Positions 10,187 to 10,592 of a stretch of DNA of 64,000 nt are shown here, piece by piece. Below the pieces are notes generated by a model. The model had not been told where the DNA came from and did no database searches. It saw only the letters and a list, made by a program, of their open reading frames with translations. A program made the translations under genes and the position numbers. Location of the stretch: the NCBI GenBank assembly GCA_963817285.1, contig CAWFOE010000029.1, positions 6,209 to 70,208 of the forward strand. Reading direction: 5' to 3'. Source of the stretch: an uncultured Pseudomonadota bacterium. GTDB taxonomy: Bacteria > Pseudomonadota > Gammaproteobacteria > Natronospirales > REEB76. Within the stretch, counting starts at the first letter, position 1; each line of letters begins with the position of its first letter.

Positions 10187-10298
10187 TTGGGAGATCGTCT
10201 AGCGGTAGGGTGAGGCGCAAAGCGCCGAACGACCCGACAGGATGTCGGGGCAGGGTGGCCGGAGCGAAGCGGGATGCGAAGCGACGGAACCTCAAAGC
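10187..10298 (+). repeat. truncated tRNA-Gln copy (acceptor and D-arm) interrupted by GC hairpin modules
   Basis: tgggAgatcgtctagcggtagg matches tRNA-Gln nt 1-22 with one mismatch. An 88-nt insert follows (ggcgcaaagcgcc; ccgacaggatgtcgg), then ccaacctaggtt, which is the variable/T-stem 5' part. Confidence 0.7.
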
Positions 10299-10339
10299 CA
10301 ACCTAGGTTTCTTTTCTTAGTTTAAAATCAGTTTCCTTT

Positions 10340-10413
10340 TGGGGGATCGTCTAGCGGTAGGACTGCGGACTCTGACTCCGCCAACCTAGGTTCGAATCCT
10401 AGTCCCCCAGCCA
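10340..10413 (+). tRNA. tRNA-Gln (anticodon CUG)
   Basis: 74 nt. Acceptor tggggga/tccccca, anticodon loop cuCUGac, T-loop ggttcgaatcc, encoded CCA. Confidence 0.9.
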
Positions 10414-10418
10414 AAGGC

Positions 10419-10452
10419 AAAGGCCCGCTCATCGAGCGGGCCTTTTCCTTTT
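10419..10452 (+). terminator. rho-independent terminator after tRNA-Gln
   Basis: aggcccgctc-atcg-gagcgggcct followed by a T-rich run. Confidence 0.6.
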
Positions 10453-10459
10453 GGGGGTT

Positions 10460-10592
10460 TGGGGGACTAGGATGAGAACCCTTGGGTTCGACAAAATCGC
10501 CGGGAGCGATTTTGAACAGTGCCGTCTTGCGGCACTGGCCCCGAAGGGGCGGAGGGCAGGGATAGCCCGGAGTAATCCTGGGTCCCCCAGCC
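10460..10592. repeat. inverted plus direct copy of the tRNA-Gln 3' end, with an 82-bp hairpin insert in the T-loop
   Basis: tgggggactaggatgagaaccc is the reverse complement of a 3'-end-like sequence. It is followed by gggttcga | caaaatcgccgggagcgattttgaac...ggagt | aatcctgggtcccccagcc. Confidence 0.7.

Follow-up and report, generated by a model that had tools for sequence, protein, structure and literature searches.

The stretch of DNA analyzed here (the window) comprises 64,000 nt (64 kb) of contig CAWFOE010000029.1 from an uncultured gammaproteobacterium, and contains three tRNA genes detected by ARAGORN, all of them on the plus strand: tRNA-Gln(CUG) at 10340-10413, tRNA-Ser(GCU) at 48568-48661 and tRNA-Arg(ACG) at 55596-55672. 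The tRNA-Gln gene is flanked on both sides by partial copies of itself that carry inserts. The downstream flank was identified as a tRNA-linked repeat (TLR), of the kind known from Escherichia coli, and the upstream flank contains a module of a second structured family, designated type B. The features of the Gln locus, with scores from the models described further on, are the following.

9748-10140: rpsI open reading frame (ORF), with a Ribosomal_S9 Pfam match.
10153-10180, plus strand: rpsI terminator hairpin, a terminator-like site.
10188-10209, plus strand: copy of tRNA-Gln nt 1-22 (acceptor 5' strand and D-arm to G18G19), TGGGAGATCGTCTAGCGGTAGG.
10207-10254, plus strand: type-B core in the Gln insert, formed by GGGUGAG, helix P2 (GGCGC/GCGCC), CGAAC, helix P3 with a CAGGAUG loop, and GGC.
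10255-10297, plus strand: variable 3' part of the Gln insert, with a weak GGGAU-loop hairpin in the predicted fold.
10298-10309, plus strand: copy of tRNA-Gln nt 43-54 (variable loop, T-stem 5' strand and TT), ccaacctaggtt, identical to 10381-10392.
10340-10413, plus strand: intact tRNA-Gln(CUG) (ARAGORN; Rfam tRNA model, 60.1 bits).
10419-10445, plus strand: intrinsic terminator-like hairpin between tRNA-Gln and the TLR, in a position equivalent to that of rrnB T1.
10460-10481, plus strand: inverted copy of the T-arm and acceptor 3' strand, tgggggactaggatgagaaccc, carrying the conserved GGAUGAGAACC variant and forming the closing helix with the tail.
10483-10581, plus strand: TLR core with its T-loop junctions (GGTTCGA, four hairpins, AATCC), matched by covariance model R1 with 79.6 bits (this sequence is in the R1 seed).
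10574-10592, plus strand: copy of the tRNA-Gln 3' tail, aatcctgggtcccccagcc (3' part of the T-loop, T-stem and acceptor 3' strands, GCC).
12140-12262, plus strand: degenerate second TLR with tail AACCCTAGCCCCCCAGTC, matched by R1 at 12152-12249 (18.9 bits, E 0.012).

The upstream copy begins 8 nt after the rpsI terminator hairpin, and TGGGAGATCGTCTAGCGGTAGG is identical to 10340-10361 at 21/22 positions, A5 being a substitution diagnostic of the copy (chance matches expected from 100 shuffles: 0). It is followed by an insert of 88 nt (10210-10297) and then by ccaacctaggtt; the retention of nt 43-54 after the insert places the type-B module within the remains of a decayed copy of tRNA-Gln, a situation shared by the TLR core. 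The downstream unit starts 47 nt past the end of tRNA-Gln, on the same strand and after the terminator-like hairpin. The first 14 nt of its arm tgggggactaggatgagaaccc are the exact reverse complement of atcctagtccccca in the tRNA, and the arm taken as an 18-mer has 3 mismatches (0.05 matches expected by chance). The arm shares its motif GGATGAGAA with the tyrT TLRs of E. coli and with the consensus of Rfam RtT. The direct copy consists of gggttcga (10484-10491), an insert of 82 nt (10492-10573) and the tail, which by manual count differs from the tRNA-Gln tail by one inserted base and one substitution. In the core, hairpin 1 (hp1) is AAAAUCGC-CGGGA-GCGAUUUU, hp2 is variable, hp3 is GCCCC-GAA-GGGGC and hp4 has the loop CAGGGAUAG. 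The predicted fold of the whole unit is multi-branched and closed by the pairing of the inverted arm with the tail (-77.3 kcal/mol, z = -4.6), and the opposite strand folds well too, as expected of palindromic hairpins.

The sequence-only reading of this DNA had described the Gln flanks in the same terms, from the copy of nt 1-22 with its 88-nt insert to the direct copy with its 82-nt insert, and every part was found in its place. It had also claimed that the three tRNA genes of the window share this kind of flank and that coincidence is a poor explanation, and this claim held. The Ser and Arg genes show the same layout as the Gln locus, with a copy of each tRNA's first 14 nt located 115-212 nt upstream of each of the three genes. 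Moreover, GTTCGACAAAATCGC occurs exactly three times in the window (10486, 48745 and 55753), each time 3' of a tRNA gene, with 0.06 occurrences expected; the covariance-model matches and the presence of at least 120 related loci in Gammaproteobacteria point the same way. The inserts are members of two conserved structured repeat families, not unrelated filler, and the identity of the 3' unit with a known element had gone unrecognized in the sequence-only reading.

No Rfam family was detected at the tRNA flanks when gathering thresholds were used. A permissive Rfam scan matched RF00391 (RtT) over 10451-10592 and over the full length of the model (24.4 bits), and RF02902 (AaHKsRNA22) over the insert (27.1 bits). 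The covariance model R1 was constructed from 61 TLR cores, none of them from E. coli and the Gln core among the seeds. Applied to E. coli, it recovered the TLR between the rrnB T1 and T2 terminators with 66 bits (E 1.6e-14) and four tyrT TLRs with 26-38 bits. When 5,426 E. coli genomes were searched with the TLR by blastn, only a chance match was obtained, this method being too insensitive. In the locus sequence, the E. coli tyrT unit consists of GGGGAAGGATGAGAAGCTTCGACCAAGGTTCGAC, four hairpins and TAATCCTTCCCCCACCACCA. The E. coli rrnB T1-T2 segment, which we take to be the terminator segment much used in cloning vectors, reads GGACAAATCCGCCGGGAGCGGATTTGAAC, GTTGCGAAGCAAC, GGCCCGGAGGG, GGCGGGCAGGACGCCCGCC, ATAA and then the 5S tail. 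The parts of both units follow the same order as 10460-10592, one to one. The downstream unit is a genuine homologue of the E. coli TLRs (RtT/RttR of the tyrT operon, their founding member, and RrA/B/F), and is therefore of a known kind.

TLRs were first described in 1978 (Egan & Landy 1978, Rudd 1999 as cited in Stenum et al. 2021, PMC8144298). E. coli K-12 has 22 of them at ten loci, each closing with a stretch of 18-19 bp that is identical to the 3' terminus of the tRNA or 5S rRNA gene preceding it (Stenum et al. 2021, PMC8144298). Three of them are rrn-linked, namely RrA/B/F, which lie between the T1 and T2 terminators and are processed RNAs; in vitro they bind both Hfq and CsrA, and for RrB this in vitro binding of CsrA takes place via GGA motifs (PMC8144298). 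In the E. coli serV-argVYZQ locus (L126 385-1246, minus strand; L-numbers designate the related loci that were fetched), the arg-linked TLRs lack GGTTCGAC and hp1 and carry ...GGCACCAGGGAGGAUAAC. This last sequence resembles the CACCAGGGAUGG motif that ends the type-B units of the window, which suggests an exchange of modules between the two families.

The 19-nt motif GTTCGACAAAATCGCYGGG was searched in a collection with one genome per species, and at least 120 loci were obtained. Nearly all of them belong to Gammaproteobacteria, including Steroidobacteraceae, Lysobacterales, Rhodanobacter, Rheinheimera, Alteromonas, Klebsiella/Serratia, Methylococcaceae, Thiohalophilus and others. The TLR family extends well beyond the Enterobacterales. 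Among the matches listed, 81 of the 135 motif occurrences had a same-strand tRNA gene at most 600 nt upstream, a further 22 had one downstream, and the opposite strand accounted for 1, the remaining ones being at locus edges or chance matches in coding sequence; copies on the strand of the tRNA numbered 107, versus 1 on the opposite strand. In the same set, the 16-nt tail was identical to that of the neighboring tRNA in 73/103 cases (shuffled tails never had fewer than 4 mismatches), the inverted arm was complementary to the tail over at least 8 nt in 30% of the units versus 3.4% in controls, and Ser, Gln and Arg, the same three types as in the window, were the commonest partners. A TLR was found at 76/131 tRNA genes of the fetched loci and none at 55/131, with bystander Lys, Leu, His, Trp, Gly and Met genes mostly devoid of it. 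Since in E. coli TLRs also occur at ten loci only (PMC8144298), the absence of such flanks from other tRNA genes, which the sequence-only reading had proposed as a refutation, would not refute the phenomenon. The motif was also searched in 2.9 million viral contigs, where a single chance match in coding sequence was found. In three Rheinheimera loci (L022, L025 and L049), hp1 is followed by about 150 nt of extra hairpins before the tail, a lineage-specific expanded variant.

With R1 at E < 1e-3, 135 cores from 98 sources were collected. In their alignment 93.6% of the cells pair, versus 79.3% in shuffles (0/500 reach the observed value), a pairing that is somewhat inflated since the alignment was fitted to R1; an alignment made with MAFFT only shows the same hairpins. 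Changes on both sides were observed in 17/20 pairs, and sliding of the partner columns dropped the pairing to 51% or less. At one pair of the core, G-U was observed in 80 sequences and G-C in 37, indicating folding of the tRNA-sense strand. Hairpins hp1 and hp4 lie within 1-4 nt of the core ends, and hp1 is conserved in sequence, not merely in pairing. The TLR core, of roughly 64-90 nt, is a discrete four-hairpin module located exactly between A58 and A59 of the T-loop.

This position is also visible in 22 cases in which the core interrupts an otherwise full-length tRNA copy just upstream of the intact gene. The junctions are always GGTTCGA, core, ATCC (A58/A59), and in these copies the acceptor 3' strand is truncated 10-13 nt past the junction. 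Tandem cores (...GTA, CAAAATC...) were observed as well, with as many as four of them in a single T-loop (L059). Outside tRNA copies, the core was found inside IS91-family (Y2_Tnp, ISVsa3-like) transposase genes, antisense to the gene, in L038 (6080-6169), L067 (about 70 nt after the motif at 4412-4430, minus strand) and L101 (506-575). The insertion site corresponds to conserved F-E codons (TTCGAA), that is, GGTTCGA, core, A, and the exact removal of 73 nt in L038 or 71 nt in L067 restores the ORF ..KTPYRDGTTHVV, FEPLD.. (TPYRDGTTHVV/FEPLD). The intact homologue in L247 reads ACG CAC GTC ATT TTC GAA CCA; its antisense, TGGTTCGA, AAAT, constitutes an empty T-loop-like site. Additionally, a core variant of 74 nt fills a type-B hairpin loop in L136 and L246, which is empty in L133 and L217 (about 90% identical). 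No target-site duplication was visible at the core insertions, and the left junction was GA/C in all contexts. A core variant was also observed in the anticodon loop of pseudo-tRNA-Ser(UGA) copies (CTTGA, ..., AAACC) in L010 (1437-1690) and L029 (3874-3961), with a different hp1 and the same hp2-hp4; the L029 copy carries insertions in both the anticodon loop and the T-loop.

The upstream insert is a member of a second structured family, type B, which is joined after G18G19 of the D-loop and has a three-way-junction fold, often with a GGA loop. The Gln insert, the Ser units and the Arg element share one skeleton: a tRNA 5' copy up to the D-loop GG, GTGAG(C/G), P2, CGAAC, P3 with a CAGGAUG-like loop, and GGC. 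In the related genome loci, a copy of the tRNA's first 14 nt within 500 nt was observed upstream in 24/152 cases and downstream in 0/152. A metagenome scan with GTAGCTCAGYTGGGTGAGC produced at least 120 loci. Among the matches listed, 128/131 were outside tRNA genes and 93 had a same-strand tRNA gene starting at most 500 nt downstream; the first 18 nt were identical to those of the downstream tRNA in 73/87, and the partners were Arg (five anticodons), Phe, His, Asn, Met, Thr and Val. Tandem arrays were present in L159, L241 and L243. When 42 elements were aligned with MAFFT, 86.7% of the cells paired under a three-way-junction model, versus 71.8% in shuffles (0/500 reach the observed value), with slid controls at 33-37% and seven pairs showing double changes.

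Two further models, R2 (including the tRNA 5' part) and R3 (trimmed of the tRNA-derived part), were built from these metagenome sequences only, those of R3 being elements upstream of tRNAs other than tRNA-Gln. R2 barely detected the Gln element (E 0.18). The five best matches of R3 in the window were an orphan module at 59634-59681 on the minus strand (E 1e-4), Ser unit 1 (4e-4), Gln 10207-10254 (23.8 bits, 7e-4), Arg (7e-3) and Ser unit 2 (0.1). No Rfam family (Rfam 15) was found for type B in the window loci or, at gathering thresholds, in 12 loci carrying type-B elements, and no description of this 5' counterpart was found in the searched literature, which did not reach Rudd 1999 or the papers of 1978-1994. 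In loci collected for a TLR, type B was rare (2/100 at E < 0.01), and the co-occurrence of both families, as in the window, is therefore not the rule.

The corresponding features of the other two tRNA genes are listed below.

48269-48567, plus strand: tandem array of three type-B units, located immediately 3' of csrA in the predicted Ser leader.
48712-48898, plus strand: Ser TLR, with inverted T-arm (48712-48734), GGTTCGA (48744-48750), core and tail AATCCCTCTCTCTCC (48884-48898).
55384-55568, plus strand: Arg type-B element beginning with tRNA-Arg nt 1-20 (R2 42.1 bits, E 7e-9).
55713-55853, plus strand: Arg TLR 1, with inverted arm (55713-55738), GAGTTCGA, core and tail AATCCTCCGGGCGCGCCA (55836-55853) (R1 77.4 bits).
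55897-56161 (span including an orphan arm), plus strand: Arg unit 2, with inverted arm, GGTTCGAATC, reverse-oriented type-B-like hairpin modules, tail CCGGGCGCGCCA (56086-56097) and terminator.

The Ser leader directly follows csrA (47971-48180, PF02599, E 3.5e-25; the gene ends at 48183), and a promoter-like site (48208-48237) lies upstream of its type-B units. Units 2 and 3 begin with nt 1-10 and nt 1-18 of tRNA-Ser, respectively, and R3 matched 48354-48400 (unit 1) and 48468-48515 (unit 2). The predicted leader has about 320 nt and contains, in its three type-B units, about five GGA-loop hairpins, which could allow feedback on CsrA. The R1 match of the Ser TLR is weak (14.4 bits) because further modules, of the P2-CGAAC-P3 type, are nested in its core. 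By manual count, the Ser TLR tail matches the first 15 nt of the tRNA-Ser tail and then diverges.

At the Arg locus, a promoter-like site (55307-55335) lies upstream of the type-B unit, and by manual count the tail of TLR 1 equals the 19-nt tail of tRNA-Arg minus one base. Each of the three tail and terminator copies of this locus is followed by an inverted arm, so that the repeating unit appears to be tail, terminator, arm, GGTTCGA and core; the third, orphan arm (56141-56161) stands after the terminator of unit 2. Terminator-like hairpins precede the downstream units at all three loci and at Arg they also follow them. The Ser and Arg inverted arms contain ATTCGAA, the reverse-complemented T-loop, and are true inverted copies. 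The possibility that the left arm is a direct copy (acceptor 5' and T-stem 5' strands) was rejected, as the Ser and Arg arms hold ATTCGAA, the Ser arm also holds flanking variable-arm bases, and the Arg arm pairs A with a tail U where the tRNA T-stem has G-U. A primer-binding site of retroviral type was also rejected, the inverted arms being without the complement of CCA and of the last acceptor bases. The GGA-loop hairpin of the Arg type-B element holds a nested module (GGTTCGG..CCGAAC and two GGA hairpins, 55460-55539); in the close relative L215 (600-736) the same hairpin is uninterrupted, GCGAGGCAGGGAAGCCGAGC, and the nested module is absent.

Similar modules were observed elsewhere in the window. 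The orphan type-B module (59634-59720, minus strand; GGUGAGC...GCGAACGCC-UAUGCAGGAUGCAUG-GGCUGG) is intergenic and upstream of a minus-strand ORF starting at 59451, with no tRNA gene nearby, and gave the best R3 match in the window. At 23120-23262 on the minus strand, away from tRNAs, CCGAAC and GGGCAGGCAGGAUAGCCUGCCC, a second AGGAC-loop hairpin and a terminator-like hairpin lie 3' of the stop codon of an ORF, the C-terminus of which is presumably that of a ribose-5-phosphate isomerase. An ordinary 6S RNA (SsrS) was detected at 25614-25799 on the minus strand (Rfam 95.9 bits).

An islet of low GC content (10600-14000, 48-52% versus about 63%) begins right past the tail of the Gln TLR. Its small ORFs include those for a TonB_C-like protein (10640-11017, minus strand) and for a Rap1a-family immunity protein of the type VI secretion system (12346-12768); no integrase was found among the five islet ORFs scanned with Pfam, the ORF at 13374-13658 being outside that scan. 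The degenerate second TLR lies inside this islet, 1.65 kb from the first. Its tail copy (12242-12259) is a diverged tRNA-Gln tail with 3 mismatches, and its hp1 variant, GTTCTTAGCGAGG...GAGCTTAGAAC, resembles that of the Ser TLR. The islet and the degenerate TLR suggest that the tails may sometimes serve as secondary recombination sites.

The explanation that we favor, and that we consider probable as a whole, is that two tRNA-linked module families insert in loops and are expressed as sense leader and trailer RNAs that titrate CsrA (and Hfq); the enzymology of insertion and the function of the RNAs are what we infer in it. Both modules would be discrete elements that use hairpin loops as landing sites, in copies of tRNA genes and occasionally in other sequences. 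The locus would survive since an intact tRNA copy adjoins the one that was hit, and the hit copy would then decay to 18-22 nt next to the module; unequal recombination, with the repeated tRNA ends as substrates, would subsequently enlarge the arrays. Transcription in the tRNA sense would make the modules part of leader and trailer RNAs, to be released by processing of the tRNA/rRNA type; the more the tRNA is transcribed, the more CsrA (and Hfq) their GGA hairpins may titrate, a role already proposed for E. coli RrB. The CsrA step is the weakest of this mechanism. Of the 138 GGA-loop hairpins on the sense strand, 15 belong to the tRNA-flanking 3.2% of the window, an enrichment of about 3.4-fold under a loose definition, and GGA-type loops are present in hp1 (CGGGA) and hp4 (CAGGGAUAG) of the Gln TLR and in type B (CAGGAUG).

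A more specific version of this proposal is that the TLR core and type B are paired non-autonomous mobile elements that insert in the loops of the tRNA elbow (after G18G19 and at A58/A59) and in look-alike loops, by a machinery recognizing folded single-stranded nucleic acid, and that the hosts may have co-opted the leader and trailer RNAs as CsrA-binding signals of the rate of tRNA transcription. We put it forward tentatively, as a conjecture that may well prove wrong. No explanation of why TLRs copy the end of the neighboring RNA gene was found in the searched literature; if true, insertion in the elbow would explain this 48-year-old puzzle of TLRs ending in the 3' end of the neighboring RNA gene.

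Several observations weigh against the favored explanation. The RtT score of the Gln TLR (24.4 bits) is below the Rfam gathering score of 45, and the Ser and Arg TLRs had no Rfam match at E < 1; in our reading, the sub-threshold score reflects an Rfam model seeded on enterobacterial tyrT-type units rather than non-homology. The R3 support for the Gln and Ser type-B elements is modest (E 1e-4 to 0.1, with a rough calibration), and the upstream Gln region as a whole is no more stable than its shuffles (z = -0.09); in the Gln 5' flank, support is limited to the module core. The three ISVsa3 cases could descend from one event, with hp2 nearly the same in all three. No insertion enzyme was identified, nothing like a Y1 HUH transposase being found next to the three loci (no genome-wide search was made), and the inverted arm is unexplained by a simple insertion. 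As for CsrA, GGA is not universal: many type-B P3 loops and the hp4 loop of E. coli tyrT are without it. Moreover, according to Stenum et al. 2021 (PMC8144298), a prediction algorithm assigned low CsrA-binding scores to the 19 TLRs linked to tRNAs in E. coli, and RrA/B/F had small effects in vivo. Transcription was judged here from consensus scans for promoters and terminators only, and the promoter scan of the Gln locus found none.

Among the alternatives, the one that survives best considers the modules as purely selfish elements, similar to miniature inverted-repeat transposable elements and perhaps moved by a single-strand transposase of the HUH/IS200-IS605 type, without any RNA function; the hairpins would serve for recognition by the transposase, and the linkage to tRNAs would be a preference for T-loop-like GA/A loops. 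It accounts well for the clean insertions 3' of GGTTCGA without target-site duplication, including those in a protein-coding gene, for the hairpins near both ends and the tandem and nested copies, and for an hp1 that is conserved in sequence rather than in pairing alone. What it does not account for is the orientation, which among the matches listed is that of the tRNA in 107 cases and the opposite in 1 though the target TTCGAA is palindromic. Nor does it explain that hp2-hp4 covary and have conserved loop motifs, with G-U tolerated on the sense strand only, that promoter-like sites lie upstream of the Ser and Arg type-B units and each downstream Arg unit has its own terminator-like hairpin, or that E. 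coli RrA/B/F are processed into discrete RNAs binding Hfq and CsrA; and the search next to the three loci (no genome-wide search was made) found no transposase. We regard it as unlikely, and prefer loop insertion followed by use of the RNAs.

The flanks might also be scars of the attL/attR type left by tyrosine integrases at tRNA 3' ends, with the inserts as decayed ends of islands. Direct repeats of the tRNA 3' tail are indeed what integrase insertion leaves, and the low-GC islet begins right after the Gln tail and contains the second tail copy at 12242-12259. However, such scars make neither 5' copies with a second conserved module nor inverted arms, and the tail repeat is part of an RNA-like module that occurs without islands in most loci: a conserved, covarying four-hairpin unit with at least 135 copies across Gammaproteobacteria, homologous to E. 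coli TLRs that also follow 5S rRNA genes. In addition, no integrase was found in the five islet ORFs scanned, and the motif was absent from the 2.9 million viral contigs but for one chance match. We consider integrase scars very improbable.

Even less probable are ordinary decayed tandem tRNA duplicates with unrelated GC-rich, REP-like palindromes accumulated in them by chance. tRNA genes often duplicate in tandem, and the window has similar GGA-hairpin modules away from tRNAs (23120-23262 and 59634-59681, both on the minus strand), but the exact recurrence of the junctions after A58 and G19 in hundreds of copies and at least 15 tRNA species, motif counts far above chance and covariance-model E-values of 1e-14 to 1e-21 are at odds with it. 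The least probable reading of all, functional split or intron-containing tRNA genes with inserts removed at the RNA level, would suit inserts that lie in loops, as archaeal tRNA introns also do, and the upstream copies of L041, L021 and L084, full-length and interrupted only in the T-loop, but it fails because these copies lose their proper acceptor 3' strand, by truncation or replacement, 10-13 nt after the junction, the Gln copy of the window lacks the anticodon arm and all after T55, an intact cognate tRNA gene is always adjacent, and the core is antisense to the mRNA in the ISVsa3 genes. Chance accumulation and split tRNAs are excluded by the precision of the junctions and by the truncated ends.

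The 3' half of the architecture is a rediscovery of a known element, and the 5' half and the evidence for insertion extend the family beyond the descriptions found: a mirror-image family, absent from Rfam 15, exists on the 5' sides of tRNAs, and the TLR core also occurs at T-loop-like sites in unrelated sequences. These findings yield two testable hypotheses, namely loop-targeted insertion and tRNA leaders and trailers acting as CsrA-binding RNAs, with csrA itself adjoining. For genome annotation, the modules explain many partial-tRNA and pseudo-tRNA signals beside real tRNA genes.

The elements can be compared with several known systems. With the CsrA-sponge small RNAs of the CsrB/RsmZ type, the present modules share multiple GGA-loop hairpins within a few hundred nucleotides (the loops of the modules being CAGGAUG, CAGGGAUG and CGGGA). 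Sequence homology with them is lacking (Rfam CsrB 15 bits versus a gathering score of 71), and the present modules sit in tRNA leaders and trailers instead of being free-standing with their own promoter, with far fewer GGA sites per unit. IS200/IS605-derived PATEs, REP/REPIN and the Rickettsia palindromic elements resemble the modules in being short and hairpin-rich, with tandem and nested copies, and in inserting at a fixed short target without target duplication, sometimes inside genes. With the miniature elements of the IS200/IS605 type (PATE), the TLR core shares a location 3' of the target and subterminal hairpins. Unlike these palindromic and miniature elements, the modules described here target the loops of tRNA copies, have an orientation tied to transcription, and contain internal hairpins that covary like those of a functional RNA. 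AaHKsRNA22 (RF02902), an Aggregatibacter small RNA, aligns over 10482-10572 (ACAAAAYCGC...GCGRUUUUGAAC, hp2, GGCCCCRAAGGGGCG), but with 27.1 bits, below the gathering score of 39.8, and its Rfam description line presents it as free-standing and mentions no tRNA linkage; it is probably the Pasteurellaceae version of the TLR core.

Besides the sub-threshold RtT score, the unit differs from the E. coli TLRs as follows. Its hp1 sequence is of the rrnB type (AAAUCCGC/AAAAUCGC) and not of the tyrT type, yet it is linked to tRNAs and not to 5S rRNA. The host is a non-enterobacterial gammaproteobacterium, whereas the rrn-linked RrA/B/F were traced only within the Enterobacterales (Stenum et al. 2021, PMC8144298). 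Finally, neither the 5' counterpart nor an insertion in the T-loop is part of the description of TLRs given by Stenum et al. 2021 (PMC8144298). The window units and those of E. coli are alike in being located 3' of a stable-RNA gene, in the same orientation and past the first terminator, and in having an inverted arm with GGAUGAGAA; their four hairpins follow one another in the same order, with CGGGA, GNAG and CAGGAYG as common loop motifs. Both have a tail of about 18-19 nt that corresponds to the 3' end of that gene, but the tails of the three window loci, though clearly derived from those of their tRNAs, are not identical to them. The genomic neighborhood is alike as well, with csrA-tRNA-Ser(GCU)...tRNA-Arg(ACG) in the window and the order csrA-serV-argV in E. 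coli.

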